Below, in pieces: positions 7,837 to 45,662 of a DNA stretch of 64,000 nt. Origin of the DNA: an uncultured Gammaproteobacteria bacterium (GTDB lineage Bacteria > Pseudomonadota > Gammaproteobacteria > CAWCPV01); assembly GCA_963797555.1 (NCBI GenBank), contig CAWCPV010000007.1, positions 512,001 through 576,000 on the forward strand. The letters are read 5' to 3'. The notes beneath the pieces were generated by a model that searched no databases, was not told the origin of the DNA, and saw only the letters and a list, made by a program, of their open reading frames with translations. Both the position numbers and the translations under genes were made by a program. Numbering within the stretch: position 1 is the first letter of the stretch; the number at the start of each line of letters is the position of its first letter.

Positions 7837-7844
7837 GCCGTGCC

Positions 7845-20608: not shown

Positions 20609-23285
20609 ATGGACGACTCGGCACCCCGCTATGATTTGTTCCTGAGCTACCACTGGCGCGACCGCCAAGCGGTCGAGTCGGTCGCGAAGGCGCTCACGGC
20701 GCGGGGGCTCAAGGTCTTCCTGGATCGCTGGTACCTCCCCGCCGGCCAGCCCTGGCCGCTCGCGCTCGAACAAGCGCTCGGCACCTGCCGCGCGGCGGCG
20801 GTGTTCCTCGGGCCGAACGGCGTGGGGAGCTGGCAGCAGCGGGAGAAGTGGCTCGCGCTCGACCGCCAGGCGCGGGAGCCGGGCTTTCCCGTGATCCCGG
20901 TGCTGCTGCCGCGCGCGGAGCAGCCAGCCCTGGAGTTCCTCTCCCTCAACACCTGGGTGGACCTGCGTGCCGCGCTGGACGATGCCGAGGCCCTGGACGT
21001 GCTCGTGCACGCCGCGCGCGGCGAGGCGCCGGGACCTACCCTGTCGGTGCGCCTGAGCGCCACGCTCGCGAGCATCGCCCCCTACCGCGGCCTCGGCGTG
21101 TTCCGCGAGGAGGACGCCCCCTTCTTTTTCGGCCGCGACGAGTTCATCGATCAACAGCTCCGGCCTACCGTCGAGGGGTGCTCGCTGGTCGCGGTGGTGG
21201 GGGCCTCGGGCAGCGGCAAGTCCTCGGTGGTCCGAGCGGGATTGCTGCCGCGGCTGCGCCGCGGCGAGGGCGGCAAGGTGTGGGAGATCGCGACCCTGCT
21301 CCCCGGCGACCGGCCGCTGCACGCGCTGGCCGCCGCCCTGCTGCCCTTGTTGGAGCCGGAGCGGGCCGAGCTGACCGAGACCGACCGGCTCGCCGAAGTG
21401 GGCAAGCTCGCCGGGCACCTCGCCGCGGGCACGGTGGCGCTGCGCGACGTGGTGGGTCGGGTGCTGGAGAAGCAGCTCGGGACCGAGCGCCTGCTGCTGG
21501 TCGCCGATCAGTGGGAGGAGCTTTACACGCTCACTCGGGAAAGCTCGGCTGCGCAGCGCTTCATCGAGGAGGTGCTGGACGCCACCGCCACCGCGCCGCT
21601 CACCGTGGTGCTGACCTTGCGCGGCGATTTCTTCGGCGAGGTGCTGGCGCACCGCGGGCTCGCCGATCGGCTGCAGGGCGGGGTCGTCAACCTGGGACCC
21701 ATGAATCGGGAGGAGATCGCGCAAGTGGTGGTGCGGCCGGCCGAGAAGGTCGGGCTCGCCTTCGAGCCGGGGCTGCCCGAGCGCATCCTGGACGAAGTCG
21801 GCGAGGAGCCGGGCCACCTGCCGCTGCTGGAGTTCGTGCTGACGGGGCTATGGCAGGACCGCCAAGCCGGCCGGCTGCTGCACGAGGCATACGATGCCAT
21901 GGGCGGCGTGCAGGGGGCGATGGCGCAGCGCGCGGAGGAGGTCTGGAAAAAGCTAGGTGAGCGTGAGGAGACCACGCTGCACCATCTCTTCCTGCAACTG
22001 GTCAGCGCCGGTGCGGGGACCGCGGACACGCGCCGACGTGCGGTACTCGCCGACCTTGCGCCCGCCGTGCGACCGGTGGTGGCGAAGCTCGCCCGCGAGC
22101 GGCTGCTGGTGATCGGGCGCGACGAGGCGAGCGGCGAGGAGACGGTGGAGGTCGCCCACGAGGCGTTGATCCGTCACTGGGATCGGTTGGGGAAATGGCT
22201 CGACGAGGACCGCGAGTTTCTGCTCTGGCGCCAGCGCCTGGAGGTAGCGCTCGCCCAGTGGAAACGTGCCGGCCGCAAGGACTCCGGCACCCTGCTGCGC
22301 GGGGCCCCGCTGGCCGAGGCCGAACGCTGGCTGGGGGAGCGTGGGGACGACCTGACCGAGGAGCAGCGCGCCTACGTGCGCGCGAGCCTCGCGGCGAGGG
22401 ACCGCCGCCGCTGGCTCACGGGAAGCGCGGCGGCGCTGGTCTTGCTCGCCTCTCTAGCGGTCGCCACCTGGCAGTATGGCGTGGCTGAGCGGCTGCGGCG
22501 TGAGCGGGCGCCGATCCCGCCCGCGATGGTCCTGATCGAGCCCCGCCCCTTCATGATGGGCTCCCCCGAGGGTGACAAGGAGGCACATCCCGATGAGTGG
22601 CCCGCCCACGACGTGGTGATCGCCAAGCCGTTCAAGATCGGCAAGTACGAGGTAACCTTCGAGGAATACGACCGCTTCGCGCTCGCCACCGGCCGTCGCC
22701 CGCCCAGCGACCAGGGCTGGGGCAGCGGCCAGCGCCCGGTGATCAATGTCTCCTGGGACGACGCCGTCGCCTATGCCCAGTGGCTGTCGAAAAAAAACCG
22801 GCCAGCGCTTTCGGCTGCCCACCGAGGCGGAGTGGGAGTATGCCGAGCGGGCGGGCAGCGTCACCGCACGCTTCTGGGGCGACGATCCGAAGCAGGCGTG
22901 CCGCTACGCGAACGTCTATGACAAGACGGGCGAGGCCGGAGGCAAGGAGAAATACGCGATCACCTGGGAGGCGCACGACTGCGAGGATGGCTTCGTCGAG
23001 ACCGCGCCGGTAGGTCGCTTTCAGCCCAACGCCTTAGTACTGTACGACATGCTGGGGAACGTCTGGGAGTGGGTGCAGGACTGCTGGCACGAGAGCTACC
23101 GTGACGATCCGCCGCGGGACGGCTCGGCCTGGCTGGAGGCTGATGGCGGCGATTGCGGTCGGCGCGTGGTCCGCGGCGGCTCCTGGAACTACGGACCGAG
23201 GGACGTGCGCTCGGCGGTGCGTGACAGGATACCGGCCGACTACCGGACCAACTACCTCGGTTTCCGCCTCGCCCAGGACTTGTAG
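20609..23285 (+). CDS. TIR-nSTAND1 NTPase-TM-FGE-sulfatase (CLec-fold) receptor, DGR target; frameshift in A8 run 22790-22797
   Basis: TIR (YDLFLSY, WQQRE); PYRGLGVF..FFGRD, GASGSGKSS, DQWEELY, LTLRGDF, LPLLEF, EVAHEALIRHW; TM helix; EVTFEEY, PVINVSWDDA, RLPTEAEWEY, DMLGNVWEW, RGGSW...GFRLAQDL. Confidence 0.9.
23165..23285 (+). other. Putative DGR variable region (VR)
   Basis: RGGSWNYGPRDVRSAVRDRIPADYRTNYLGFRLA with many NNC codons (TAC, GAC, GCC, ACC, AAC) at positions that are AAC in CLec-type template repeats. Confidence 0.7.
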
Positions 23286-23319
23286 CCCTTTGCTCTTTAT
23301 CCTTTTACCCTTTCGGGGG

Positions 23320-23342
23320 TCCAGGGGGCGGAGCCCCCTGGA
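23320..23342 (+). promoter_or_regulatory. DGR target-recognition hairpin (10-bp stem, GGA loop)
   Basis: TCCAGGGGGC-GGA-GCCCCCTGGA about 35 bp after the VR stop, preceded by a pyrimidine tract; no U-tract on the + strand. Confidence 0.75.
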
Positions 23343-23357
23343 GCGTCGGCTGAGCCG

Positions 23358-23632
23358 GTGAAGGACCTCACCCCCCACGCCGTGCAGTCCTGCCACGAGC
23401 TGCTGCTGTGGCTGCTGCCGCTGTTGGACAAGCTGCCTCGGGTACGGCGCTTCACGCTCGGGGAGCGCATCGAGAGCGCGCATCCTGGATGTGCTGGAGG
23501 CGCTCGTGGAGGCCGGCTACAGCGCCGGCGGGGCAAAGCGGACGGCGCTCAAACGGGCGAACCTGAGGCTGGAAGTGACGCGCCACCTCTGGCGCCTGTG
23601 CCACGAATCCCAGCTCGTATCCGCGCGGCGCT
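23358..23632 (+). pseudogene. avd: DGR accessory variability determinant Avd, frameshifted (~23478) and 3'-truncated
   Basis: AVQSCHELLLWLLPLLDKLPRVRRFTLGERIES / ILDVLEALVEAGYS..ANLRLEVTRHLWRLCHE..VSARR; the final helix ending GRQIGGW is missing. Confidence 0.82.
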
Positions 23633-23857
23633 CTTCCCCCACCGACGGCGCGGCGTCATCGAATCTCAACTCCCCCCGGACCACGACGGTGGGCGAAGGC
23701 GCGCTCGGGCACCTATATACTACGTAGCAAGGACGCCCTCCGGGCCGGTTCGCGGCCGAAACTACCGGCTCGAAAACGTAGCGCAGCCTGGGCAGCGCCC
23801 GCGCGAGGCCCCAACGCAGCGAGGCCACCCAGACAGGTCTGCAACAAGGAGAAACGC

Positions 23858-25192
23858 ATGAACCGCCCCCTTTGCTTCGTCCTCATGCCCTTCGGCAAGA
23901 AGCCGGATGCCGGGGGCTCGGTGGTCGACTTCGACGCCGTCTACCGGGAGCTGATCGCCCCGGCCATTGAGGAGGCCGGGTTGGAGCCCCTGCGCGCCGA
24001 CGAGGAGATGACCGGCGGCATCATCCACAAGCCGATGTTCGAGCGCCTGATCCTCTGCGAGTATGCGGTGGCCGACCTCACCACGGCCAACGCCAATGTG
24101 TTCTACGAGCTGGGCGTGCGCCATGCGGTGCGCCCGTTCAGCACGGTCCCGCTATTCGCCGCAGGCGGCAGCCGCTTGCCCTTCGATGTGGCACCGCTGC
24201 GGGCGATGCCTTACCGGCTGACCCCCGAGGGCAAGCCTGCGGAAGTGGAGGCCGACAAGAAGGCATTGGTGGAACGTCTCGAAGCGGCCGAGCAAGAGGC
24301 CGCTACCGACAGCCCCGTGTACCAGCTCGTCGAGGGGTTCCCGGACGTCGACCACGCCAAGACCAACGTCTTCCGCGACCAAGTGCGATACGCGGCCGAG
24401 ACCAAGCAACGGCTCGCGGCGGCCCGCAAGCAGGGGGCCGAGGCGGTGCGGGCGGTGGAGCGGGAGCTCCGGGACATCCGTAACCAAGAGGCCGGCGTGG
24501 TGATCGACCTTTTCCTGTCCTACCGCGCCGTCAATGCCTGGGAGGACATGATCGCCCTGGTGCCGAAGATGTCTCCGGCACTCGCTCCCACCGCCATGGT
24601 GCAGGAGCAGCTCGCGCTCGCACTCAACCGTGCGGGGCGCGGGGAAGAGGCCGAGCGAGTGCTCCTCGACCTTATCCAGAGGCGCGGGCCGAGCAGCGAG
24701 ACCTACGGCATCCTGGGGCGGGTATACAAGGACCGCTGGGAGGCCGCAGCCAAGGCCGGTGATCGCTTCCTCGCCCGCGGGCTGCTGGACAGAGCGGTCG
24801 AGGCGTACCTCAAGGGCTTCGAGGCCGACTGGCGCGACGCCTATCCCGGCATCAACGCCGTCACCCTGATGGAGCTGAAGGACCCGCCCGACCCGCGGCG
24901 CGGGGCGCTCCTACCGGTGGTCTCCTACGCCGTGGAGCGGCGCATCGCCGCCGGCAAGCCCGACTACTGGGACCACGCCACCCGCCTGGAGCTGGCGGTG
25001 CTGGCCAGGGAGGAGCAGAAGGCGAAGGCAGCGCTCTCCGACGCGCTCCCTGCGGTGCGCGAGCCCTGGGAGCCCGAGACCACCGCGCGCAACCTGCGTC
25101 TGATTCGAGAGGCCAGGGAGGGGCGGGGGGAAGAGGTGCCGTGGGCGAGGGAGATCGAACGGGAGTTGGAGCGGCGATCGCAGCGGCGCTAG
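23858..25192 (+). CDS. Nucleoside deoxyribosyltransferase-like domain + TPR-S (DUF4071/MAP3K TRAFs-binding) protein
   Basis: CFVLMPFG, LRADEE, VADLTTANANVFYELGVRHA; EQLALALNRAG, SETYGILGRVYKDRW, YPGINAVTL, DYWDHAT, WEPETTARNL. Confidence 0.85.
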   Translation: MNRPLCFVLMPFGKKPDAGGSVVDFDAVYRELIAPAIEEAGLEPLRADEEMTGGIIHKPMFERLILCEYAVADLTTANANVFYELGVRHAVRPFSTVPLFAAGGSRLPFDVAPLRAMPYRLTPEGKPAEVEADKKALVERLEAAEQEAATDSPVYQLVEGFPDVDHAKTNVFRDQVRYAAETKQRLAAARKQGAEAVRAVERELRDIRNQEAGVVIDLFLSYRAVNAWEDMIALVPKMSPALAPTAMVQEQLALALNRAGRGEEAERVLLDLIQRRGPSSETYGILGRVYKDRWEAAAKAGDRFLARGLLDRAVEAYLKGFEADWRDAYPGINAVTLMELKDPPDPRRGALLPVVSYAVERRIAAGKPDYWDHATRLELAVLAREEQKAKAALSDALPAVREPWEPETTARNLRLIREAREGRGEEVPWAREIERELERRSQRR

Positions 25193-25460
25193 TGCCCCAC
25201 AGCCGCGACCTCACTTAGCGCTCTGAGGGGATCGAGATCCCAGGTGCGCCAGCGTAACGCACCAGGCATACAGACCAAGGTCGGTTCGTTACGTTATGCT
25301 CGGGCGGTTGGCGCTGAGACGCCGACCAAGCTGCCAGAGCGCTCCGACGACAGGATATGAATGCGGTGCGTGGGCAGGCGCAGATGCGTCGGTCAGGTGT
25401 ACTTTGGGCACTTTATTGGGGCTGGATTGGGGCTGAGCGGGGAGTTTCGGCGGAGCATCG

Positions 25461-26111
25461 ATGCGGATCAAGAACGCATGTTTCATCAGCTATTGCCACG
25501 GTCAGAATGAGCTGATCAAGGGTTTCATCGAGCAGCTCTGTAGAGCACTCAAGAACTACCTGGAGCCGCTGATGGACGAGGGGGTATATGTCGATTACGA
25601 GCGGCTTCAGCCCGGTTACCGATTCAACGAAGCCCTGGCCAGAGATATTTGCGAGAGCGTTTGCATGATCGTGGTCTACTACCCCAGATACGAGCAGCAC
25701 TCGTATTGCCGGCGCGAGTTCGCGGCCATGGAGATCATGGAGGAGCACCGCAAGGCCCTACTGGGTGCCCACCTACATGGACGTGGCTTCATTATTCCGG
25801 TGATTCTCACTACCGGCGCTGACGGAGTCCCCGACAAGATCAAAGGTGCCCTCCACTACTCCGATTTCTCTGGGTGGACCCTTGCCAGCAGCGATATTAG
25901 CCGTAACCCGGACTTCATACCGGCCATTAAGGACATCTGCACAGCTATCCACGAGCTCTACGAGCTGCTGCGGCAGAAGATTGCCGCCGGAAATCAGCAT
26001 ATGGACTGCGTCGACTTCCGGGTTCCCGCTGAAGCCGACGCGCCGCCTTGGCAACACGGGGGGACAGTGCCTGGCCCATTGCCCTTTCCCGGCCGGAAGT
26101 CCGCCCCGTGA
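25461..26111 (+). CDS. Standalone TIR-domain protein (FxsC-like)
   Basis: CFISYCH, VYVDYERLQPG, YYPRY..SYCRREF (catalytic Glu), IIPVIL. Confidence 0.82.
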   Translation: MRIKNACFISYCHGQNELIKGFIEQLCRALKNYLEPLMDEGVYVDYERLQPGYRFNEALARDICESVCMIVVYYPRYEQHSYCRREFAAMEIMEEHRKALLGAHLHGRGFIIPVILTTGADGVPDKIKGALHYSDFSGWTLASSDISRNPDFIPAIKDICTAIHELYELLRQKIAAGNQHMDCVDFRVPAEADAPPWQHGGTVPGPLPFPGRKSAP

Positions 26112-28912
26112 AGCCAGCCATCGCGGGCGAGGTAATCACCTTCTATTCCTACAAGGGTGGTACGGGCCGCTCCATGGCGCTGGCCAATATCGCTTGCCTG
26201 CTTGCTGCCTCGAGTGCAGACGGCCGTGAGGTGCTTATAGTGGACTGGGATTTGGAGGCGCCAGGCCAGCACTGGTTCTTCCTCCGCTCGCAGCTTCCTG
26301 GGGCGAACGACGGATGGCGTGCGGCCGGGAGTGACGAGCGACCAGGGTTGATGGAACTGCTTGAGATGCTAGAACGCAAGGTGCCGAAGACCGATGCGGA
26401 GTCGGTCGTCGAGGCTGAAGCGCAGGCCGAGAAGCTATTTGAAGGCCTGTCGCTCGAAACCTACGTCACTCCGACGGCCTTTCCCAAAGTCCATTTGCTC
26501 AAGGCCGGACGGCTCGACTCGGGCTATCCAGAACGGGTCAACACCTTCGCCTGGGAGGGCCTCTACCGGCGTGCGCCGTACCTTTACCAGACCTTAGCCA
26601 GGCACCTTGCGGCGCGGTACCGCTACGTCATCATCGACGCGCGCACCGGGCTTGCGGACATGAGCGGGATATGCACGACCCTCATGCCGGAAAAGCTGGT
26701 CGTGGTGTTTACCCCTAATCGACAAAGCCTGACCGGTATGTCGGAGGTAATCAAGCGAGCTACCACGTACCGTCGCCGTTCCGACGACCTGCGGCCCCTG
26801 CTCGTCTACCCTCTGCCATCGCGCATCGATTCAGAGCGGGACGAGTTGCGCAAGCGTTGGCGGTATGGGGACTCCACGCATGGAGTCGACGGTTACCAGC
26901 CACTCTTCGAGCGGCTGTTCCAGAACGTCTACGGGCTGAAGCAATGCGACCTGGGGGCCTATTTCGATGAGGTGCAGATCCAGCACAGCCCCGATTACGC
27001 CTATGGTGAAGAGATCGCCGTCAACGTGGAGACGAGCGAGGACCGCTTTTCCCTCGTTAGGAGCTACAAGGCGTTGCTGGAATGGCTGGCCAACTCCTAC
27101 GCGCCTTGGGAAGGTCTGGAGCAGGCACGCGCGATCCGCGACCTCGGCGTACTGGAGGTGAAGGAGCGCGAGTTGCGGGCTCGGGCCGGGGCGGACGCCG
27201 AGGCGAGGCGCGAGCTAGCGTCGTTGCGAGAGGAAATCTTCACCCGCAAGGCAAAGTTAAAGGGCGAGCAGGATCCCGATACCCTGGCGGCAATGGACCG
27301 GCTGGCCCGAACCGTCTGGGAGCAAGGTGACTGGAACGCAGCGCGACGGCTGCAGGAGCAGGCGATCGAGGCCCGCCGCCGGGTGCTGGGCGAGGAGCAC
27401 CCCGACACCCTGACCAGCATGGGCAACCTGGCCGCGACGCTCCGGGCCCAGGGCGACCTCCCCGGCGCCCGCGCCCTTCAGGAAAAGGTCCTGGAGGTCA
27501 GCCGCCGGGTGCTGGGCGAGGAGCACCCCGACACCCTGACCAGCATGGGCAACCTGGCCGCGACGCTCCGGGCCCAGGGCGACCTCCCCGGCGCCCGCGC
27601 CCTTCAGGAAAAGGTCCTGGAGGTCAGCCGCCGGGTGCTGGGCGAGGAGCACCCCGACACCCTGACCAGCATGGGCAACCTGGCCGCGACGCTCCGGGCC
27701 CAGGGCGACCTCCCCGGCGCCCGCGCCCTTCAGGAAAAGGTCCTGGAGGTCAGCCGCCGGGTGCTGGGCGAGGACCACCCGGACACCCTGAGGAGCATGG
27801 GCAACCTGGCCGCGACGCTCCGGGCCCAGGGCGACCTCCCCGGCGCCCGCGCCCTTCAGGAAAAGGTCCTGGAGGTCCGCCGCCGGGTGCTGGGCGAGGA
27901 CCACCCAAACACCCTGACCAGCATGGGCAACCTGGCCTGGACGCTCCGGGCCCAGGGCGACCTCCCCGGCGCCCGCGCCCTTCAGGAAAAGGTCCTGGAG
28001 GTCCGCCGCCGGGTGCTGGGCGAGGACCACCCAAACACCCTGACCAGCATGGGCAACCTGGCCTGGACGCTCCGGGCCCAGGGCGACCTCCCCGGCGCCC
28101 GCGCCCTTCAGGAAAAGGTCCTGGAGGTCAGCCGCCGGGTGCTGGGCGAGGACCACCCGGACACCCTGACCAGCATGAACAACCTGGCCGGGACGCTCTG
28201 GGCCCAGGGCGACCTCCCCGGCGCCCGCACCCTTCAGGAAAAGGTCCTGGAGGTCCGCCGCCGGGTGCTGGGCGAGGACCACCCGGACACCCTGACCAGC
28301 ATGAACAACCTGGCCGGGACGCTCTGGGACCGGGGCGACCTCGCCGACGCCCGCGCCCTTGAGGAAAAGGTTCTCGAGGTCCGCCGCCGGGTGCTGGGCG
28401 AAGACCACCCAAACACCCTGACCAGCATGGGCAACCTGGCTGGCACGCTTGGGGCCCAGGGCGACCTCCCCGGCGCCCGCGCCCTTCAGGAAAAGGTCCT
28501 GGAGGTCCGCCGCCGGGTGCTGGGCGAGGACCACCCAAACACCCTGACCAGCATGGGCAACCTGGCCTGGACGCTCCGGGCCCAGGGCGACCTCCCCGGC
28601 GCCCGCGCCCTTCAGGAAAAGGTCCTGGAGGTCCGCCGCCGGGTGCTGGGCGAGGACCACCCAAACACCCTGACCAGCATGGGCAACCTGGCCTGGACGC
28701 TCCGGGCCCAGGGCGACCTCCCCGGCGCCCGCGCCCTTCAGGAAAAGGTCCTGGAGGTCCGCCGCCGCCTGCTCGGCCCTGAGCACCCCGACACACTTCG
28801 GGCAATGGCCCAGCTCGCCGAAACACTCGATAAGTCGGACGACAAGGCTGCCCTCGCCGCGCTGCAGAAAGAGATCATTGCCTCAGTACAGCGTTTGCAG
28901 AAAACGCCCTAG
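26108..28912 (+). CDS. ParA/MinD-like (KGGxGR-variant) ATPase fused to a 42-aa TPR array (FxsT-like)
   Basis: TFYSYKGGTGRSMALAN, VDWDLEAPG, IIDARTGLAD, FTPNRQSL; GTG start overlaps the TIR stop (GTGA). Confidence 0.85.
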   Translation: MKPAIAGEVITFYSYKGGTGRSMALANIACLLAASSADGREVLIVDWDLEAPGQHWFFLRSQLPGANDGWRAAGSDERPGLMELLEMLERKVPKTDAESVVEAEAQAEKLFEGLSLETYVTPTAFPKVHLLKAGRLDSGYPERVNTFAWEGLYRRAPYLYQTLARHLAARYRYVIIDARTGLADMSGICTTLMPEKLVVVFTPNRQSLTGMSEVIKRATTYRRRSDDLRPLLVYPLPSRIDSERDELRKRWRYGDSTHGVDGYQPLFERLFQNVYGLKQCDLGAYFDEVQIQHSPDYAYGEEIAVNVETSEDRFSLVRSYKALLEWLANSYAPWEGLEQARAIRDLGVLEVKERELRARAGADAEARRELASLREEIFTRKAKLKGEQDPDTLAAMDRLARTVWEQGDWNAARRLQEQAIEARRRVLGEEHPDTLTSMGNLAATLRAQGDLPGARALQEKVLEVSRRVLGEEHPDTLTSMGNLAATLRAQGDLPGARALQEKVLEVSRRVLGEEHPDTLTSMGNLAATLRAQGDLPGARALQEKVLEVSRRVLGEDHPDTLRSMGNLAATLRAQGDLPGARALQEKVLEVRRRVLGEDHPNTLTSMGNLAWTLRAQGDLPGARALQEKVLEVRRRVLGEDHPNTLTSMGNLAWTLRAQGDLPGARALQEKVLEVSRRVLGEDHPDTLTSMNNLAGTLWAQGDLPGARTLQEKVLEVRRRVLGEDHPDTLTSMNNLAGTLWDRGDLADARALEEKVLEVRRRVLGEDHPNTLTSMGNLAGTLGAQGDLPGARALQEKVLEVRRRVLGEDHPNTLTSMGNLAWTLRAQGDLPGARALQEKVLEVRRRVLGEDHPNTLTSMGNLAWTLRAQGDLPGARALQEKVLEVRRRLLGPEHPDTLRAMAQLAETLDKSDDKAALAALQKEIIASVQRLQKTP
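27374..28759 (+). repeat. 11 tandem 126-bp near-identical repeats encoding kinesin-light-chain-type TPRs
   Basis: Unit (R/S)RRVLGE(D/E)HP(D/N)TL(T/R)SM(G/N)NLA(A/W/G)TL(R/W/G)AQGDLPGARALQEKVLEV; 11 x 126 = 1386 bp. Confidence 0.97.
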
Positions 28913-29302
28913 CCGACAGCGCCTGAGTGCCGGGGCATCATCCGCGGCGGCCTGACGAAACAGTGCGTCCCTCAGCTCGATGGGGTGGATGTGGGCGGCC
29001 CTGGCCTCGGGATTCACGACCAGCACTCGACACCTCGGATCGCCCTCGCGGCTTGTGGCGAGAAAGCCCGCCGTCGGCTCCCACTGGCAGGCGCGGGAGC
29101 GCGCGTAGTGCTCGGAGTAATAGGCGAACACGGCCTTGGAATTGGCGATGCCCTCGACGATGGCGCGGGTGATGCTGGAGTAGTCCCGGATGTCGCTCTC
29201 GTCCTGCCAGACCGCCAGGCCGGAGGCTCGCAGCGCCTCGACGATGGGACGCACCGCGCCCCGGTTCTTGTGCGGATAGCTGAGGAATAAGTCACAGGAC
29301 AT
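28883..29302 (-). pseudogene. TIR domain, probably the truncated N-terminus of a larger TIR-NTPase protein
   Basis: DLFLSY, GLAVWQDESDI, YYSEHYARSRACQWE; frame runs into the 3' end of the convergent TPR gene. Confidence 0.7.
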
Positions 29303-29359
29303 CGCGGACTCTTGGCTGTGCATGCAGCGCGGGCCGCCGTTGGATCGAAGCCGACGGTC

Positions 29360-29803
29360 TCAGGGAGCCAGCAACCGATGCTTGACGCTGAGGGAAGCGG
29401 CCGATCGGGCCAGCAGTACATCGCAGGTCACCAGCACGGCGCCCAGCGCATGTGCACAGGCGAGGTGCAGTGCATCCAGGGTGCGCAACGGTGTCATCCG
29501 GGCGAGCAGCCAGCGCTCTGCCTGCCGATAATGGCGTGCATCGAGCGCAACGACCCGAAAGCAGCCGCTCTCCAAATCCTCGCGGTAGGCGGATTCGACT
29601 TCTGCGGCCTGAGCGGGGGTCAATTCACCCATTCGCACCCATCGGGCCAGTGCCGAGGCAAGCTCGATCTGGGTCAGGAGGGTCAGCAGCGCCGGGCGGG
29701 TCAACGACATCAACAGCGCCTGCACAGCATCACTCACGGCCTCCTCACGGTAGTAAGGCAGCAGCGCGCTGGTGTCCAGGTACAGCTCCTCAGTAGCGCT
29801 CAT
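29360..29803 (-). CDS. vapC: VapC PIN-domain toxin
   Basis: LYLDTSALL, IELASAL, LRTLDALHLA, LVTCD. Confidence 0.9.
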   Translation of the reverse strand: MSATEELYLDTSALLPYYREEAVSDAVQALLMSLTRPALLTLLTQIELASALARWVRMGELTPAQAAEVESAYREDLESGCFRVVALDARHYRQAERWLLARMTPLRTLDALHLACAHALGAVLVTCDVLLARSAASLSVKHRLLAP

Positions 29804-30032
29804 CCTCTCTCAGACCGCGTACGATCTCGGCGCTGGTGATCTGGCTGACAGGTAGCCGCTGGCGGAACGCCCGCCGGTCCGGAAAGCACACGCCCTGCGG
29901 CTGTGGAGCGATAGCCACCAGGCGTGCTATCGCTTTGCCGCGGCGCTCGATGACGACCTCCTCGCCAGCCTCGACGGCATCCAGAAGCCGGCCTATCTGG
30001 GCCCGCAGTTCGCGGATATTGACTACGTGCAT
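29790..30032 (-). CDS. Phd/YefM-family antitoxin
   Basis: VNIRELRAQIGRLLDAVEAGEEVVIERRGKAIARLV; overlaps vapC. Confidence 0.9.
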   Translation of the reverse strand: MHVVNIRELRAQIGRLLDAVEAGEEVVIERRGKAIARLVAIAPQPQGVCFPDRRAFRQRLPVSQITSAEIVRGLREDERY

Positions 30033-30047
30033 CGTGTCCTCCCCGGA

Positions 30048-30069
30048 ATGTACACCGAGCAGTGTACAT
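30048..30069. promoter_or_regulatory. Probable toxin-antitoxin operator
   Basis: Perfect inverted repeat ATGTACAC-N6-GTGTACAT immediately upstream of the antitoxin. Confidence 0.65.
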
Positions 30070-30245
30070 GCACTAACGGCGGATTGCCGGGGGCCGACGA
30101 CAGCGTTCTGGCAAAAGCTTGCGGCGGCAAGGGGTTGCCGCCCTAAAGGCTCCGCGGAGTCATGTCTCGTCGATCTGAGGGCCTCGCCAGCGCGATGCTT
30201 GCGACGTGTACCGACTTACGGACTCGATGCCGCAGCTACCAGGAC

Positions 30246-30418
30246 GAGCAGAAGGCGATACCGGCGCTCGCGGACGCGCTGGCCGCGGTGCGGAGCCCTG
30301 GGAGCCCGAGACCACCGCGCGCAACCTGCGGCCCATCCGAGAGGCCAGGGAGGGGCGGAGGGACGACGTACCGTGGGCGAGGGAGATCGAGGGGGAGTTG
30401 GAGCAACGGGCACGGTAA
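30246..30418 (+). repeat. Diverged orphan copy of the 3' end of the DUF4071/TPR-S gene (25013-25192)
   Basis: 38-bp exact block 30293-30330 = 25061-25098; encodes PWEPETTARNLRPIREAREGRRDDVPWAREIEGELEQRAR*. Confidence 0.88.
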
Positions 30419-30632
30419 TAACTAAGTCTTTGCGGCTGGCACATCGCTGAAAGGATGCTGCGTTACTCGACGTACGCCGGCAAGAAACACGATACTGCGG
30501 ACTTCAGCACGGCTCGATTATCATAAACGGTGCGCCCTCGGCTTTTTGTGTGAGTCCAACTGCGAAGGGTCCGCAGAGGCTCTTGCAGGCCAGCCATGTC
30601 AAAATCACTGCTCCGTAGGTGGGGTTACGTGC

Positions 30633-33600
30633 GTGCAGCACCCTGATCACTTCGAGTGGGACGTGTTCCTGAGCTACAGCCATGCGGACAAGCCGCGAGT
30701 TCTCCGTCTGGCCGAAAGGTTGCGCGATGCCGGGTTGCACGTTTGGCTGGATGACTGGGTAGTCCGGCCCGGCGATGACTTCAATCTTGCAATACAAGAG
30801 GGGCTTCAGCGCTCCCGGCGGCAGGTGTTCTGCATTTCGAAAGAATCGGTCGAATCTGACTGGGCCCGCGCTGAGCAGAATAGCGTTCTTTTCCGGGACC
30901 CTCTCAACCGCGAGCGCCGGTTCATACCGTTCTTTTGGAAGACTGCGGCATACCCGATTTCGTCGGGCGCTTCCATCGTGTCGACCTCCGCTCGGAAACC
31001 GAAGAGGCATGCCGCCAGCCCATCGACGCCTGCTCACCGGCACATTACGGGACCATGGCCGCAAACGCGCCAGGTACCGCGACTCGGGAGGAGCTTGACG
31101 TCCTTCGCGACAGGTTCGCCCATGCATCGCAGGACCTCCTCCGCTGGCCCGCATCTCTCCCCGGAGGCACATGGTTGGAGCGGCCGGAGCTGGACGATAT
31201 CCTGCGCTCGATCGAAACCACACGATCCTCCTTGACCCTTCTGCTCGGTGAACCAGGGGGCGGCAAGTCGGCCCTGTTGGCCCGCCTTGGTGCGCTTCTC
31301 CAGGAGCGCGCTATAGCCCTGCTGGCGATCAAGGCTGACTTCCTGCCCAGCAACGTCCTGACGCTCTCGGATCTGTCGACCTATCTGCAGTTTCCCGTCA
31401 CGGTGGACCGGGCATTCCCACTGCTCGCAGCCCAAGGGCCCGTGGTGCTCCTCGTCGATCAGCTCGATGCCTTGGCCGACATGGTGGTGCAGCATGCAGA
31501 GCGCCTGAAGCCCCTGCTCGAACTCATCGAGACTCTCGCTGAGATCGATACCGTCCATATCGTGGCATCGTGCCGTACCTTTGAGCACCGCCACGATCCA
31601 CGCCTGCGGAGCCTTGCTGCGGAGCCCCTGCAACTCTCCCTCCCTGGCTGGGAATCTGTGGCGTCCACATTGCGCCATTGGGGTATCGAAGCAGGAGCCT
31701 GGAGCGCTTCGATCCGCGAAGAACTCCGTAGTCCTCACGTATTGGCGCTGTTCCTCGACTTGCTGAAAGACAGGCACGAAGCGCACGTGCTCTCTTGCTA
31801 CCAGGCGATGCTGGATACCCTCTGGCAGCAACGGGTGCTGCACGACACGACCGGGGCACGACGCCAACTGCTATTCGACATGGCGGAACAGATGGCCGAA
31901 CGAGAGACGCTATGGTTGCCGTTGGCGATGTACGAGGACCGGCGGGAGACGGTTCACGCGCTGGCGCGCGATGGAATCCTCACCACGGACGACGCGGGTC
32001 TGCGCGTCGGCTTCCGACACCAGACCCTATTCGAATTCGTGCGCGCTCGCAGTTTTCTCGAGGAGTCGGGTCGGCTTACCAATGCCGTCGTCGCCCGGCA
32101 AACCAGCCTGCGCGTTCGTCCGCAACTGTGGCATGCCCTGGGCTATCTGCGCGCAGCCGATCGCAGCACGTATCTTGGGGAGATCGAACTCCTTTGGCAC
32201 GCCGATCTGCGTGCCCATTTGCGCGCGCTCGTCATCGAGTTCCTGGGGCGGATGCACGATCCCGAGCAGCGCGAAGCTCATCTGCTACTCGCGAGCTTCG
32301 ATGACCCTTGGCACAGGCGTCGGATCTTGTCCGCCGTTGTCGGTAGCCCCGGCTGGTTTCGGTTGCTGATGCCCGGTCACTTGCCGATGCTGATGTCCGG
32401 AACTGCTGAGGAAGCGTCGCAGGCACTCCCAGTTCTGCAAGCGGCTCTCGTCTTCGCCCGCGACGATGTACTTGAGCTGGCGGATTCCCATTGGATGGCT
32501 CACATGGAACGGGACGTGGTGATATGGCGCCTGCTGGAAGAGGTACCGCAGTGGGACAATGCGGTGGTGGACCGGTTCTGCCGCGTTCTCGGCCGGACGG
32601 AGATCGCCGCGTGGGCCGTGAACGCACTCGCGAGCAAGGTGAGCGCGGCACTGCCCAACGAGGCGCCTCGACTTGTCGCCGCATGGCTGCATCGCCAGCT
32701 CAGATCTATTGCGACCAATGCCTCTGCCACAACATCAAACCGCGATGCCGACCCCACCGAGACCGCGGCGGGAGATATCAGCCAGATGGACCCGCACGCG
32801 GGCTACCGCAAACTAGTCGGCGAGCAGCGACTGCACGACCTGCCCGCGGTCGCCGAGGCTGCCCCGTGGTCGTTCCTCAATGCTGTCTGGCCATGGTTCC
32901 TCACGGTGCTGCAGCAAGCGGCCGAAGAACCGCACCCGTTCGTTATCGGGTACCGCGACGACCACGGTTTGGTTACGGACTGGGAGAACGACGCAGACCT
33001 CGAGCGCGAGCACCCACTTCTCAAAGCGCTGGAGATCGCAGTGGACGGAGTCGCGGCGCGAGAACCCCGCGCCTTCCTCGAGTTCGTCGAGACCCATCGC
33101 CGGCACGACTTGCTTATGCTTCTGGTACAGCGCCTGCTGGCCCGCGGAATGTTGCAGCTCGTCGATGCGTGGCCTAACGAGGTGCTTGAGTTTCTCACCG
33201 AGGATCCGCGGCGGTTTGCGCTGGAACCGTCGGCCAATGAGCACGCCGATTCACAGCGGTTGATAAGGGCCGTCGTTCCTCGCCTGGACGCGAGCGGCCG
33301 CCGGCGGCTGGAAGAGGCCCTTATTCGTTGGAGCCACTATACTCGTCATCCGGAGGACGAACCCGACGTTCGTTTACGCCGCCTGCGATGGAGCCGCGAG
33401 CACCGGCTCCGGCTGCTGCGCGCATTCCCGAGGGAGTACATGAGCGAGGATTGCCGCCAACTCCTCGATGCGGAAACGCGGGCTTTCCCCGACTTGAGTG
33501 ACCGAGATACGTGGTTTTCCGGCGTACGCGTGGTCGGTAGCCCAATGAGTCCAGAGCAGATGGCAAATGCAAAGGACGAGCACATTCTGAATCTCTTCGA

Positions 33601-35069
33601 AGAGCTTACCGATGACCATGGCTGGGACCACCCACAAAGCTGGGGCCGGGGTGGTCCGATACAGGCGGGGCGAGCTGGCATCGAAAGACCCGGAGCGAGG
33701 CGTCCGGATTGCTCGACTGCTACGACCAGTCCGAAACGAGTATCCGGTAAGCCAAGTGTTGGAAGGCTTGGTGAAGGGCGGCTACGCTCCCGAATCACTC
33801 TACACTTTGATCTTAGAACTTAGCCAGCGTGGATTCACAGGCGATGCATTCAGGCACGCCGCGGCTCGCGCCATAGCAACGGTCGTCTCCAGCGCACAAC
33901 CGTTGCCCGACGAGGTATTCCAACTGCTTGAGGGTTGGTTGGTCCCTGCGGATCGGATTTCTCGAGAGCGCTCGGAGGATCGGGATGATGTGAGAGAGAG
34001 GACAGCATTCTTTGGGGATATGCACGGATGCGGGTCCTGCCGCACGGAAACTATCCGATCCTGCAGGCGCTCTCGGAGGCTTGCCTCGTTGCCCAACCCA
34101 CTCAAGCGGTCCGTTGGCGCACTTTGTTGGAACGGCATCTGGGGCACGACGAAGATATTGAAGTGTGGGCGGCTATGGGGACCTATCTACAGTGGCTGCA
34201 TTTCGCGGACCGTAACCGAGCCGAAGATTTCATGCAGCGCCTGTGGGGCCGCTATCCTGAGCTTCTCGAACGAGTCGAGGGTATCCATCTCTTAGCCCAT
34301 GCACAGCACTGGGTGGGAGCAGAGCGGCTACGCCTGGCTAGAGACCACGCGCGGCAGGGGATCTCGCCTTGCCTGTCAGGGCTACGGTGAAGTCGCCATG
34401 CTGCGGCACGGCTTGTTCCCGCGCGAACAGTGGGCAACGGAGCGGGTCCGATCCATCGTGTACGGTGCGGCCTCCGATACATGCGTTCGAGCGGCTCGCG
34501 TCGGGGTGGCGCATAGTGCTGCCGCGCTGTGGAAGGAGGCTGAGTACCGTCCAGTGGCTCACCCGACCGTGGTCGCGCTGATCGCCGACAAGGATCCTGG
34601 CGTACTCAAAGCGCTAAGGGCCATATTTCGGGTCAAGGCCCTATTCCCAGACGACATGACTCGCGAGCTTTTGGATGCCATCTCCGCCAACCCGGCCATT
34701 CTTGGTCAGAACGACACAGAATTTCTGCTCGGACACCTCGAAGGACTAGTTGTAGGGGAGCCCGAGCGCGTCCACCGCGTGTGCCTCGCACTGCTCGACC
34801 GTTTCGGCGAACAGTTCGCCAGTCCCCATTCCCGGGCGTATCTCGATGGGGATATCTTGATTTCGATCGCCCTACGACTGCTAGAGCTGGGGCCATCGCA
34901 GCAGGAGCACGGCACCGAGCTATTCGAGCGGATGATGGAGCTCAACTTGCCGGGGATTACCGGAGTGCTGGTCGACCTCGACAAGCGGATGCCCAATACA
35001 CCGGCTTATGGACGCAATAGACCTCGGAGGCGCAGGAGACGGCAGGCAGACCGCGCTGACAACGGATAG
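30633..35069 (+). CDS. Large TIR-STAND/NACHT-like NTPase with long helical C-terminus (Avs-like), split by about 4 frameshifts
   Basis: TIR WDVFLSYSHAD..WARAE; GEPGGGKS Walker A; VLLVDQLDAL Walker B; IVASCR; FRHQTLFEF; contiguous ORFs join near 30935, 33670, 34010 and 34320. Confidence 0.75.
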
Positions 35070-35210
35070 CCCCTGAACCGAAAAATCCGTGCCTTCCTAT
35101 CCTGTGCTTAATACGCCGTGCAGCCACAATTGCCCCGATCGTCGGGCCACGAGTGCATACCGATGGGGGTGCCTAGCGTGACCGCGGTCATCGTGCCAGG
35201 CTGAACGCAT

Positions 35211-35624: not shown

Positions 35625-35645
35625 GGAAGCGCGTGAACAGGCTTA

Positions 35646-36050
35646 TCAGGCGGCTTCCGTGAGCAGGCTTGCGACGCGACGCAGACCTTCCCGGTCATCC
35701 CGGCCAAGTCTCACCGTTTGAAGACGTTTCAGGATCCAGGGTAGCTCCTCGTCCGGGACCTCTTGGGGCGTTCCTACGATGATGGGGACGAGTCGGCCCT
35801 TGAAAGTCTTCTCACCCAGGGCATACTCCAGCTCCGCCCGTACGAAACGCGAACGGACCCCCGCGGGCGTGAACAGGACCACCATGGCGTCCGAGTTCTG
35901 GAGCGCCTGCCCCGCCTCCAGCGCCAGGTTGTCTCCAGGCAGCACATCCCGCTCGGCGTCCCACACCTCGAGACCGGCTTCCTGCAGCGCGTCGCCCACA
36001 CGGCGCGCCAGATCCACGTCTTCGTGCGCGTGACTTAGGAAGACTTTCAT
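35646..36050 (-). CDS. Standalone TIR-domain protein
   Basis: MKVFLSHAHED, FTPAGVRSRFVRAELEYAL, LVPII. Confidence 0.88.
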   Translation of the reverse strand: MKVFLSHAHEDVDLARRVGDALQEAGLEVWDAERDVLPGDNLALEAGQALQNSDAMVVLFTPAGVRSRFVRAELEYALGEKTFKGRLVPIIVGTPQEVPDEELPWILKRLQTVRLGRDDREGLRRVASLLTEAA

Positions 36051-36344
36051 GGAAAGAGCCTACTCGAACCCCAAATGGACTACAACCACCGTAGCAGGGC
36101 CCCACCGGCGCTGTTTTGGGTCCGTGCTGGCAGGCGCTGCTATCAAGGCTTCAGACCCCAGGCGAGAACTATCGGCAGCGTCGATCCGAATGAGCCGAAG
36201 CCCGAAGATCGCGTTGGCGGGTGCCCAACCGGGGCTGGCTGCCCTCCGGCCCAGAGCCGCATGAATACGTCTCTCCCATGGACCTGGGCCGATAAGGGCC
36301 TCGACCCCAGGAGATCTTCCTCCGGCAAGCGCTCTAGCCTCGCG

Positions 36345-36773
36345 TCACTGCCCCTCCAGAACCAGCCGGAGCGCTTCCTCCTTGATGCGTTCCTCGTTGA
36401 CCCTCTCGGCAAGCTCCAAGTCGCTGTACCGGCCGCCGAAGGCATCGAGAGAAGCCTGCCGCAGCGAAGAGGGGTAGATCTCCTCGATGCTCTGCCGCAG
36501 ATCATCGACACCGAGATAAGACCCCCCGGCCCTCCTGCGCCGGTTGACGCGCAGCACCCCGTCGACGGCGTTCTTGATGGAGACCTCCCAAGACCGTGTG
36601 GAGCGTTCCTCGGCGTGCTGTTTGACGAGGTGGACGAGGAGGATGTGCAGGAAGGCTTCGACCTTGTTTATCTTGTCGTCCCGGCTCATCTCCTCCATTT
36701 CCCCCAGAAGGGCAAGGGCCTCGGCATAACGGCCCTGTTCGATGTGCGCACGCAGCTCCAGAAGCTCTTCCAT
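36345..36773 (-). CDS. DUF29-family protein
   Basis: EMEEMSRDDK..LHILLVHLVK..RSTRSWEVSIKNA. Confidence 0.75.
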   Translation of the reverse strand: MEELLELRAHIEQGRYAEALALLGEMEEMSRDDKINKVEAFLHILLVHLVKQHAEERSTRSWEVSIKNAVDGVLRVNRRRRAGGSYLGVDDLRQSIEEIYPSSLRQASLDAFGGRYSDLELAERVNEERIKEEALRLVLEGQ

Positions 36774-37151
36774 TAGGCTGTCCTCGATTTCGTTCCCGGC
36801 GCGGAGAACCCTGTGGCCGCCCTCGACCGGCCATCGCTCCTCGCCCACCTCATGATACCGTGACTCTCCCGAGCCCAGGTGCGCTGGGCGCACTGCGTCT
36901 GGCCCGCGTACCTGCGCGAACCGGTGGAGCCGCGCCACCGCCTGTAGCCGCAGCTCGCGCTGGGCTTGCGCCGCTTTCACTTCGCCAGTCGAACCAAATC
37001 CTGAGGGTCCGATATTCCAGCGCCATTCTCCTCCGTGCCGGCGCCGAGCGAGGGGCGGCACGGACTTCTACGCAATGCAGGGCCAGGCCCGCGGCGCGCG
37101 CCGACTCACGGGCTCGCTTGCCCACGCGGGGCGGCTTGTGCGCCCAGGAAG

Positions 37152-39806: not shown

Positions 39807-39978
39807 CGTTCTTCCTCCCTATATTTCAAGTGGTTCGTAGAGGCGCCGGCCCGAACCCTCCCGCCGCACTTCTCAGGACCCCATCTCGACATAGAGTCGT
39901 CGGGCCATCAAACCCCGGGCCGAACGGCCGGACCGCTGTGAAAGCCGGTCCAGACAGATGCTTACCCGCCCCGTGGTA

Positions 39979-40700
39979 TCAGAACGCCAAGTACACATGA
40001 TGCACCACCGTGCGGGGGCCAACTATTTCGGCGCAACACATCGGCCAGGCCGCTTCGGCTGAAGCACTCGCCGCCTTCATGACCGCTCCTTGGCCTGCTG
40101 CACCGCCCAGCGGTATACCTGGTCGAATTTGGTCTCTCCATGCGCGGGCGGGGCCAGCAACGGGCGGAACTTGGGATCGTAGAGGAAGTATTGCCCCTCG
40201 GACGGAAACAGCGTTGGGGCGTGGGGCCGGGGCTTGGACGTTGAGCCCGCCCACATCGAGTTGCCACAGGAACCGCGCGGCGTCCATGAGGGCCAGCCAG
40301 ACGGGGGAGGCGTCGTTGCGCTGGAGAAGCAACGAAAGCAGGCGGATATCCCACAGCCCCACGGTTCTGTCTAAAGACCCCGAGGAGAGCGTGAGCCCAT
40401 CGGGGCTGAAGGCGACGCTGCTCACGCCAGCGCCGAGGTCCAGGGCCGGAGAGGCCCAGCGCTGGTCGAAGGCGGAGCCTGCCACCGCCGGATCAAGGAA
40501 CTTGCCCACCGTTGCCAGCTCAAGCGCGGGGCAGACCCGGTGCGATGCGCTGGTCCAGCTCTGCCGCGGCATACAACCAGGCGCGCCAGTGGGCCATGGT
40601 GTCATGGGCGATGCTCGCCTCGTTCAGTGCGTTCAGGGCCTTTTCCTCGTACGCTTTGGCAAGGTTGAAGTTGGCGGCGAACGCTCGCGGGCTGGAGTCG
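39979..40700 (-). pseudogene. Fragments of a WD40-repeat (probably STAND-WD40) gene
   Basis: One WD40 unit VSSVAFSPDGLTLSSGSLDRTVGLWD; broken frames on either side. Confidence 0.55.
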
Positions 40701-40858: not shown

Positions 40859-43061
<2,203 letters not shown>

Positions 43062-43775: not shown

Positions 43776-43799
43776 CGCCCGCCCCGGTCGCAGCTTCCC

Positions 43800-45653: not shown

Positions 45654-45662
45654 GAAGCCATC

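Follow-up and report, generated by a model that had tools for sequence, protein, structure and literature searches.

Do six TIR domains packed into ~20 kb of one contig belong to a single immune system, to several receptors that share their executioners, or to unrelated defense genes that accumulated at the same site? The question is raised by a stretch of 64,000 nucleotides from an uncultured gammaproteobacterium (G000:C7:512001-576000; hereafter the window, with positions counted from its first base), in which an island of defense-type genes spans ~20.5 to 40.7 kb. A first-pass annotation had described this island as an integrated, actively diversifying network of receptors, adaptors, and effectors matching no named defense system, and its designation as a conflict or defense island is borne out by the module content. 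The reading that we consider probable is a chromosomal anti-phage defense island made up of five or more modules whose kinds are already in the literature, a Thoeris-like core among them. All of its building blocks had been reported or predicted in the years 2020 to 2026, so it does not constitute a new class of system. The novelty lies in the arrangement of two effector genes with a common sensor domain (TPR-S), which are immediate neighbors in 10/35 other loci yet lie 12 kb apart here with other systems between them.

TIR domains and the two TPR-S proteins

All six TIR domains predicted by the first-pass annotation are real (Pfam TIR_2, E 1.1e-10 to 1.7e-25; Table 1), and the start positions given for them (20609, 25461, 29302, 30633, 35624, and 36050) are Met codons in the TIR frames. 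When the six sequences were aligned, one Glu column was found to be invariant (6/6), as had been claimed, and in AbTIR chains 7uxr, 7uwg, and 8g83 it coincides with the W-x-x-x-E Glu, which we take to be the catalytic residue. By this alignment, all six TIRs retain the Glu expected of enzymes. The source assembly (5.35 Mb in 20 contigs, 84.6% complete) contains 18 TIR_2 matches, six of them inside 15,406 bases of the island, corresponding to a Poisson P of 2.6e-11 per window and ~9e-9 over ~347 windows. The clustering is non-random and far from chance, in agreement with the earlier statement that the TIRs are not a chance pile-up. Pairwise identity among the six domains is only 23–37% (closest pair TIR5 and TIR6, 36.6% over 112 residues), so they are not recent duplicates of one another.

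The first putative effector, a ThsI-like protein, was examined by structure modeling (pLDDT 81) and profile searches. Its whole chain matches human ASK1 (8qgy) with E 1.6e-9 over 432 columns, and its TPR region matches the ASK1 central regulatory region (5ulm) with Z 22.1, the next family reaching 16.1. Unlike the N-terminal regulatory region of human ASK1 (MAP3K5), which it resembles in these matches, the protein is bacterial, lacks a kinase domain, and carries an invariant Glu in its head; identity between the two is 18–20%. The head is flavodoxin-like, and the invariant residue, E84, stands within a YELG motif. No Pfam match was obtained for the head, and 11 of 12 PDB matches of its profile are Rcl/DNPH1 N-hydrolases with the YELG Glu aligned, at weak E values of 0.07–2. 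The N-terminal alpha/beta domain also matches the TIR of TIR-STING (9lmq, Z 11.2). Assignment of the head as a TIR was rejected, a profile-profile comparison with the island TIR alignment giving a probability of 2.7%; the head is TIR-like in fold only.

This domain order is reminiscent of type VIII Thoeris, which consists of a TIR protein (ThsB) and ThsI, a CMP hydrolase with TPRs (Yirmiya et al., bioRxiv 10.64898/2025.12.03.692087). According to that preprint, the TPR of ThsI is the domain predicted by Aravind's group to sense TIR signals, canonical cyclic ADP-ribose (cADPR) activates the system, and the system, which is abundant among Pseudomonadota, has been validated in tests with phages. 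The window shares with it TPRs of this kind, here behind a head that may be N-hydrolase-like, a TIR as commonest neighbor, and a Pseudomonadota host. It differs in that the adjoining TIR is of the FxsC type and coupled to ParA, and in that a second TPR-S effector, a membrane patatin, accompanies the ThsI-like protein; in the available text of the preprint, patatin is not named and phospholipases appear only generically among 29 putative effector types. A search of the literature on DUF4071, PF13281, and PF20308 returned no bacterial study. The ThsI-like head (residues 5–143, 23858–24290) also matches the phage families phrog_3634 (5.3e-22) and phrog_10872 (5.9e-12), and such relatives carried by phages could be counter-defense or decoy proteins. 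Six other genomes of the class (G237, G270, G339, G303, G192, and G248; L182–L187) contain ORFs (open reading frames) of 352–699 aa matched over the head only (approximately the first 160 residues), which by these partial matches is evidently fused to other C-terminal parts as well.

The second putative effector, the TPR-S-patatin protein, is recognized by Pfam as TPR-S (1.6e-15) and as Patatin (6.7e-13), the latter as first annotated. GGGFR at residues 312–316, S344 (within C-V-S-G-G), and D568-G-G are invariant in 18/18 orthologues; these motifs presumably form the oxyanion hole, nucleophile Ser, and catalytic Asp of the patatin. In the structure model (pLDDT 75.5) the TPR-S head is confident and helical, and the hydrophobic segments lie at residues 772–795, 805–828, and 836–855. 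Fold matches to PlpD and CapV are weak, and Foldseek with the patatin model returned no match at E ≤ 0.001. On the strength of the model, we interpret the protein as a lipase anchored in the membrane, its sensor lying in the cytoplasm. The sensor domain family, PF20308, is common to both putative effectors. Complex prediction between the patatin TPR-S head (residues 1–300, 18 rows) and the ThsI-like protein (nine rows) gave a score of 0.00 against a mark of 0.32, a result that weighs neither way.

Assemblies centered on a TPR-S protein are known from the BcTir/Tpr preprint (10.1101/2023.05.26.542521), in whose summary the core "Tpr" protein has TIR neighbors in 28/78 operons and patatin neighbors in 4/78, and which reports anti-phage activity, with NADase/cADPR-isomer production assigned to the N-terminal domain of BcTpr. 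The window is like these assemblies in having a core TPR-S protein with TIR or patatin neighbors. It is unlike them in that its patatin is fused to a TPR-S head of its own and to three C-terminal hydrophobic helices, and in that both TPR-S proteins are found together in 10/35 loci (below). In the available text of the Thoeris and TPR-S preprints, the patatin effector with predicted transmembrane helices is uncharacterized. The TPR-S domain is a bacterial relative of the human ASK1 regulatory region, which makes its ligand of interest outside phage biology.

Gene neighborhoods in other genomes were compared from both sides. With the patatin protein as starting point, 80 loci spread over many phyla yielded 56 full-length matches, 35 of which had flanks of at least 5 kb in both directions. 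A ThsI-like orthologue (53–73% identity) was present in 10 of these 35, in nine cases within ~1 kb, in several phyla and in varied orientations; within 5 kb, a TIR was found in 12, a TIR together with a ThsI-like gene in seven, and neither in 20. On the ThsI-like side, at least 531 metagenome loci were found and 80 kept, 16 of which had flanks of 3 kb or more in both directions; within 3 kb, 10 of the 16 had a TIR, three had a TPR-S-patatin gene, and six had neither. The background frequency of a TIR in such a span is ~2.7%, as computed in the TIR-rich source genome. The comparison genomes are exclusively "same class" relatives of the source genome; 11 of 399 other genomes matched the ThsI-like protein, five over the full length and one partially, and among the five full-length loci (1.5-kb flank) one has a TIR and one a TPR-S-patatin gene directly downstream. 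A TIR with a ThsI-like gene, with or without TPR-S-patatin, is a recurrent, facultative module, and joint recurrence of sub-modules outside this genome is seen in the TPR-S pair (10/35) and in the TIR beside ThsI-like genes (10/16). The two TPR-S genes of the window are convergent, as they are in L071, where 393 nt separate them. The ParA dyad, the Phd-PIN-TIR3 run, a ThsI-like remnant, TIR-STAND, TIR5, TIR6, and the DUF29 ORF lie between them in the window. A compact version occurs in a genus with cultured members: in two strains of Pseudoalteromonas rubra (L037 and L040), a TPR-S-patatin gene is followed ~400 nt on by a small TIR and then by a ThsI-like gene.

As to the identity of the signal, which protein senses what, and death of the cell as the outcome, we infer the following scheme by analogy. 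On infection, the small TIR5 and TIR6 would convert NAD to a signal molecule that is probably a cADPR-type compound. The ThsI-like N-hydrolase and the TPR-S-patatin phospholipase would respond to it through their common ASK1-type TPR-S domain, and the two effectors would then starve or lyse the infected cell. The remaining modules would be separate: TIR-nSTAND1-CLec, presumably a former target of a diversity-generating retroelement (DGR); the FxsC-like TIR2 with ParA-TPR as switch and sensor; TIR-STAND-helical as an Avs-like single-chain sensor; and, as a fifth module, the Phd-PIN pair with the small TIR3. In TIR-nSTAND1-CLec, TIR2-ParA, and TIR-STAND, the TIR may most simply be an NAD+-consuming effector that is released when the NTPase sensor oligomerizes. 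The 3' remnant of a second ThsI-like gene may mark an old rearrangement, with the ParA dyad, Phd-PIN-TIR3, and TIR-STAND lying between the now-separated TPR-S effectors.

Table 1. Features of the island and its flanks, in window coordinates
Feature	Position	Strand	Evidence or remark
glgX-type isoamylase	17783–19900		Left flank of island
TIR-nSTAND1-CLec (FGE-sulfatase) sensor gene, ~915 codons, likely start 20609	20528–23285	+	Pfam
TIR1, head of TIR-nSTAND1-CLec, residues 38–157	ORF 20528–22921	+	TIR_2 5.9e-22
avd, DGR accessory gene	23373–23631	+	NCBIfam DivGenRetAVD; frame break near 23461–23480
ThsI-like protein, 444 aa, N-hydrolase-like head and ASK1-type TPR (TPR-S)	23858–25192	+	MAP3K_TRAF_bd 1.3e-50; TPR-S 9.5e-28
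TIR2, FxsC-like TIR, upstream partner of ParA-TPR	25461–26111	+	TIR_2 1.1e-10
ParA-like NTPase (KGGVGR type) with 42-residue TPR array, FxsT-like (ParA-TPR)	26048–28912	+	NCBIfam, Pfam
TIR3, small TIR, last of co-oriented Phd-PIN-TIR3 run	28883–29323	−	TIR_2 7.6e-18
PIN toxin	29360–29803	−	PIN 2.6e-14; 14-nt overlap with antitoxin
Phd/YefM antitoxin	29790–30032	−	PhdYeFM_antitox 5.7e-11; phd_fam 5.9e-7
3' remnant of second ThsI-like gene (residues 384–442 of 444)	30240–30415	+	130 nt upstream of TIR-STAND
TIR-STAND-helical sensor gene, Avs-like, ~1,500 codons, likely start 30633	30546–35069	+	TIR_2 2.7e-25
TIR4, head of TIR-STAND	ORF 30546–31235	+	TIR_2 2.7e-25
TIR5, small stand-alone TIR, 137 aa	35211–35624	−	TIR_2 1.7e-25; weak ThsB and other TIR models (PADLOC)
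TIR6, small stand-alone TIR, 134 aa	35646–36050	−	TIR_2 4.1e-24; ThsB_TIR 2.5e-3; aligns with AbTIR structures
DUF29-like ORF between patatin gene and TIR6	36345–37061	−	DUF29 1.1e-5, weak
TPR-S-patatin effector, 884 aa: helical TPR-S head (1–300), patatin core, three C-terminal hydrophobic helices	37152–39806	−	
Single-WD40-repeat ORF, right edge of island	39979–40605	−	WD40 4.5e-7, residues 60–86
queA-tgt-yajC-secD-secF housekeeping run	40859–46586		Right flank of island

Sensor and toxin modules around the proposed core

The TIR-nSTAND1-CLec gene, in which the domain first called CLec is Pfam FGE-sulfatase, matches nSTAND1 (8.6e-119) and the N and C halves of FGE-sulfatase (1.1e-16 and 3.5e-33, respectively). 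It is split over two frames at an A8 run (22790–22797), where the phase of third-position G+C (GC3) switches. In alignments, five paralogues encoded elsewhere in the genome follow frame 3 to ~22798 and frame 1 from ~22791, and since they pass through both frames, 20528–23285 is a single gene. It is followed by avd, which the first-pass parts list had overlooked. This gene has DivGenRetAVD matches in two frames (3.4e-4 and 1.7e-4; profile positions 4–36 and 40–85), both below the cut-off, and the Avd protein of a DGR on contig C14 aligns with it in two frames at 75% identity (residues 43–78) and 58% identity (residues 72–126). The gene after avd is the ThsI-like gene, with no reverse transcriptase (RT) or template repeat (TR) in between. 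None of the genome's 19 RVT_1 matches lies on contig C7, and no TR cognate to the variable repeat (VR) of the window was found in the assembly, where the best candidates are 72–74% identical with mismatches at all four bases. In the C14 DGR, which served as the control, VR/TR mismatches fall at TR adenines in 12/12 and 16/17 cases. As assembled, the window gene appears to be an orphaned DGR target that has kept avd and lost RT and TR, and hypermutation is apparently not operating on it. The island had been called actively diversifying; given the lack of an RT on contig C7 and of a cognate TR in the genome, together with the 23–37% identity among the TIRs, this is not supported.

The TIR-nSTAND1-FGS architecture was described by Kaur et al. 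(eLife 2021, PMC8195603) and is a class of DGR target in multicellular bacteria (Dore et al., PNAS 2024, PMC10907252). Like those diversified STAND-CLec sensors, the window has a TIR-nSTAND1-FGS/CLec gene followed by avd; unlike them, its copy shares its contig with no RT, and the assembly contains no TR cognate to it. An orphaned target in the same genome as intact DGR loci would indicate that hypervariable sensors can uncouple from their mutator. The C14 DGR (G000:C14:5700-10000) has two CLec targets, and its adenine-only VR changes suggest recent activity. The genome's second TIR cluster, on contig C4 (G000:C4:368001-388000, L093), is a DGR that looks intact. Its RT (7240–8577, minus strand) and a bAvd gene are flanked on either side by a TIR-nSTAND1-FGE gene, of which one is complete (993 aa) and one is broken into three open frames. 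Next to these, a TIR protein accompanies an SLOG-cluster2 protein, and the two may form another Thoeris-like pair. Used as queries, the C4 RT and bAvd found no relatives in 160 related loci, and the C4 bAvd also missed the window avd.

TIR2 and ParA-TPR form the second module. The claimed fusion of a 42-residue TPR array to a ParA NTPase was confirmed by TPR_10 matches in 12 stretches, by 11 tandem copies of 126 nt (27262–28821, 77–85% identical to the first), and by AAA_KGGVGR (4.5e-35, 121.7 bits against a cut-off of 90). The protein also matches NCBIfam FxSxx_TPR (5.2e-153, 511.5 bits against a cut-off of 300), the ParA-type Pfam family AAA_31, and PADLOC PDC-M28B (4.1e-16). Its ORF overlaps that of TIR2 by 63 nt, and its true start is probably near 26108–26129. 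TIR2 matches FxsC_Nterm with 2.1e-10 and 40.8 bits, below the cut-off of 130, and by this score is an FxsC-like protein rather than a curated FxsC member; its best relatives among the fetched loci are TIRs upstream of ParA-like genes (L019 and L038). A TIR-ParA "apoptosis" dyad of the FxsC/FxsT type has been described, its TIR being modeled as an NAD+-depleting effector (bioRxiv 10.64898/2026.10.19.760177). The window shares with that dyad the upstream Glu-bearing TIR and a variant-Walker-A ParA fused to a sensor, here TPRs. It differs in lacking a STAND module, in lacking the C-terminal inactive TIR (TIR-FT) and FxsAB, two features of a subset only, and in having a Phd-PIN-TIR3 run that converges on ParA-TPR. 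The ParA-TPR protein contained no TIR match indicative of TIR-FT, and no radical-SAM or peptide genes of the FxsAB kind were found among the island ORFs scanned. Tandem arrays with 126-nt units are prone to copy-number change through recombination.

On the minus strand, the genes for Phd, PIN, and TIR3 follow one another in the same direction from 30032 down to 28883. The pair had been annotated as vapBC, which holds for the PIN toxin with its overlapping antitoxin (2.6e-14) and fails for the antitoxin itself, which is of the Phd/YefM rather than the VapB type (5.7e-11). By these matches, Phd-PIN is a type II toxin-antitoxin (TA) pair. Its assignment as a TA-ParA system was set aside as speculative, since no PIN or Phd relative stands beside ParA-like genes in the fetched loci; in the available text of the ParA preprint (10.64898/2026.10.19.760177), PIN is not among the six toxin classes named for TA-ParA. 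One related contig covers 28959–30068.

The TIR-STAND gene runs through alternating frames with breaks near 30926, 33665, 34020, and 34331, the first being the switch from TIR to STAND. Its NTPase part has 706 homologues, which among those listed are mostly 1,450–1,600 aa long and carry DUF4062, TIR, or alpha/beta-hydrolase heads, the pattern of a swappable head. Full-length homologues (~1,480 aa) thread its alternating frames, and the protein reconstructed against them has ~900 helical residues behind the TIR and NTPase, so that the "Avs-like helical" region and two ORFs first listed as unknown (33.6–35.1 kb) are parts of one TIR-STAND protein. The Avs-like build noted earlier is thus upheld, while the sensor is not a separate gene, the unknown ORFs being its C terminus. 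The only PADLOC match at E ≤ 0.01 is the candidate family PDC-M54A (9.3e-17), no Avs model being among the PADLOC matches, and at E ≤ 1e-30 the family was found in 0/399 other genomes of the class. As described in a preprint, DUF4062-headed Avs proteins (NIR/DUF4062-Avs2) are NADase sensors of phage terminase (10.64898/2026.09.04.749371). The window protein is like Avs/AVAST STAND sensors in joining an NAD-targeting N-terminal head, a STAND NTPase, and a long helical C-terminal sensor in a single chain, and unlike them in matching PDC-M54A in PADLOC and no named type.

The remnant upstream of TIR-STAND is a direct repeat of 25009–25172 at 80–91% identity, and tblastn with the ThsI-like protein gives matches there in two frames, one of 41 aa at 80% identity and one of 23 aa at 61%. 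Both TPR-S proteins first annotated were found (9.5e-28 and 1.6e-15), and this remnant is a third TPR-S piece that had escaped notice. Of the lesser ORFs, the DUF29-like one is present as annotated, weakly, and none of the 80 + 80 loci related to the TPR-S genes contained a relative. The claimed WD40 remnant does match WD40, within the limits of one repeat; it matches WD40 genes of contig C3 over 28–31 aa only and is possibly what is left of a WD40 sensor gene.

How the modules may belong together

Several observations weigh against a Thoeris-like core with separate modules around it. The likeness of the ThsI-like protein to type VIII ThsI would be one of build, that is, of architecture and not of measured identity to a validated ThsI. 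Curated models do not name either effector: NCBIfam gave no match to the ThsI-like protein and PADLOC only a weak "Effector TIR" (2.2e-6), and both gave none to TPR-S-patatin. TIR2, which begins 269 nt downstream of the ThsI-like gene on the same strand, is the FxsC-type partner of ParA, and the small TIR5 and TIR6 lie 10 kb from the ThsI-like gene, in the patatin operon. Linkage of TPR-S-patatin is facultative, 20/35 loci having neither partner within 5 kb, and the two closest orthologues (L013 and L014, 72–74% identity) have no partner within 7 kb upstream or within 2.6–7 kb downstream. The genome being 84.6% complete, an RT and TR acting in trans may exist, and with six frame breaks several genes could be non-functional. 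The claim that the island matches no named system stands insofar as no single named system covers it; nearly every module is of a published kind, which tells in part against that claim.

One alternative, which we regard as possible but on balance rather doubtful, is that the TIR-headed receptors (TIR-nSTAND1-CLec, TIR-STAND, and TIR with ParA-TPR) are themselves signal generators for the shared TPR-S effectors, each reading a different phage cue and emitting a common NAD-derived messenger. Several sensors would then serve two executioners, much as plant TIR-NLR receptors serve EDS1 complexes. Consistent with this, ThsI-like genes often adjoin large TIR-headed sensors at operon-like spacings of 7–170 nt, and Pfam analysis of 15 ORFs of at least 400 aa from 12 ThsI-like loci gave nine TIRs with sensor-type parts and six TIRs alone. 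Two loci are compact operons: in L023, a TIR-NACHT/NB-ARC-TPR gene (961 aa) is followed after 167 nt by a ThsI-like gene and after 79 nt by TPR-S-patatin, and in L155, a TIR-NACHT-TPR gene (997 aa) lies 47 nt upstream of a ThsI-like gene with TPR-S-patatin 80 nt on. Elsewhere, ThsI-like genes have a TIR-nSTAND1-FGE gene (927 aa) 24 nt upstream (L124), a TIR-WD40 gene (1,175 aa) 7 nt downstream (L138), or beside them TIR-WD40 (L129, L142, and L151, the last also with TIR-TPR), TIR-NTPase-TPR (L172), or TIR-HEAT (L141). A TIR-nSTAND1 gene (999 aa) follows TPR-S-patatin after 110 nt in L070, and in three Acidobacteriota loci a TIR and ParA-like dyad adjoins TPR-S-patatin. In the window itself, the ThsI-like gene is immediately preceded by TIR-nSTAND1-CLec (gene 1) and avd, and TIR-STAND, at a distance of 130 nt, by the ThsI-like remnant. 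Couplings of TIR-STAND and TPR-S lie outside the Thoeris survey and would have been missed by it, because that survey, as described, removed the TIRs of Avs-type proteins before analysis (10.64898/2025.12.03.692087). However, defense genes cluster anyway, so that adjacency alone is weak; most TIRs within 1.5 kb of ThsI-like genes (n = 35) are small, with a median ORF of 271 aa and 26 below 450 aa against nine of 450 aa or more; the TIRs of L138 and L142 were recognized by a local profile only; and STAND TIR heads are commonly held to be NAD+-depleting effectors, the ground on which the Thoeris survey excluded them (10.64898/2025.12.03.692087), with a like model proposed for TIR-ParA (10.64898/2026.10.19.760177). 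That some TIR-headed sensors feed TPR-S effectors is plausible on these gene arrangements, and the integrated receptor-to-effector network of the first-pass annotation is upheld in part, some sub-modules being linked elsewhere (10/35, 10/16, and TIR-STAND genes abutting ThsI-like genes). The locus is of value chiefly for this pairing, open to experimental test, of TIR sensors resembling NLRs with TPR-S effectors of the Thoeris type, and also for the patatin effector with its predicted membrane helices. The pairing links two separately analyzed fields, TIR-headed single-chain STAND sensors and Thoeris-type effector signaling; if the TIR heads make messengers, and do not only deplete NAD+, the path from receptor through small molecule to executioner would follow the same logic in bacteria as in plant TIR-NLR immunity.

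It is also conceivable, though we think it unlikely, that all modules are independent and that their co-location reflects accumulation of defense genes at a permissive site. The partnerless loci on the patatin side (20/35) and on the ThsI-like side (6/16) point this way, as do the low identity among the TIRs and the drop in G+C to ~0.60–0.63 across 29.3–36.3 kb from 0.65–0.69 further left within the island, which suggests separate acquisitions; the distributions of STAND (0/399) and ThsI-like genes (11/399) in the class are likewise independent. Such an account sits poorly with the nine loci in several phyla and varied orientations where a ThsI-like gene lies within ~1 kb of TPR-S-patatin, with a TIR within 3 kb of 10/16 ThsI-like genes against a background of ~2.7%, and with the PF20308 domain present in both effectors. 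Less probable still, in our estimate, is a decaying island whose breaks (22790–22797, ~23470, 30926, 33665, 34020, and 34331) are real and whose large sensors (TIR-nSTAND1-CLec, avd, TIR-STAND) are mostly pseudogenes. The breaks themselves, the truncated ThsI-like and WD40 remnants, and the loss of RT and TR would fit decay. So would the intact readings of related populations: contigs of three of them, ~95–98% identical here, have an additional C after 30926 and a continuous TIR-STAND frame, and two of the three have an additional AA after 34331 that joins the last two frames, so an intact TIR-STAND reading exists in nature. Against decay, ordinary genes of the window are split too, namely a PAS histidine kinase (56484–58414, break at ~57.83 kb) and an SpoIIE phosphatase (59415–59985, ~59.64 kb), as is one C4 DGR target, and the break sites, at least one in a long homopolymer (the A8 run) and others at short base runs, are what consensus errors would produce in an assembly such as this one, with its 20 large contigs. 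For these reasons the breaks are probably consensus errors of the assembly rather than real mutations.

In four public sequencing runs compared, matches to the window were partial, with shares of 0.05–0.13. No indel at the A8 run was seen among the matches listed for them, where coverage is dominated by FGE domains of other organisms, and in the run with 100%-identical pieces (X4) the break sites are uncovered among the matches listed; joints with sides shorter than 30 nt were disregarded. Genome-wide, 673 split-ORF signatures were counted (12.6 per 100 kb), a figure that, in this GC-rich genome, mixes true gene junctions with frame breaks.

Borders and host

SecD from the window is 69–72% identical to SecD of Nitrosococcus and of gammaproteobacterial metagenome-assembled genomes. 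The host appears to be an uncultured deep-branching gammaproteobacterium, a placement made because this identity is 69–72% at best and because the comparison genomes are same-class relatives only. No tRNA gene was found in the island, no integrase or transposase among the island ORFs scanned, no 12-mer common to the two borders when these were compared for att-like repeats, and no PHROGs match for the border ORFs. A stretch of 92 T and another of 29 A occur in the assembly, odd at 65% G+C, and may be assembly artefacts. A broken insertion-sequence gene stands ~18 kb left of the island, where a DDE_Tnp_1_4 transposase survives as two neighboring pieces (profile positions 310–430 and 19–197) at 1006–2328 on the minus strand.

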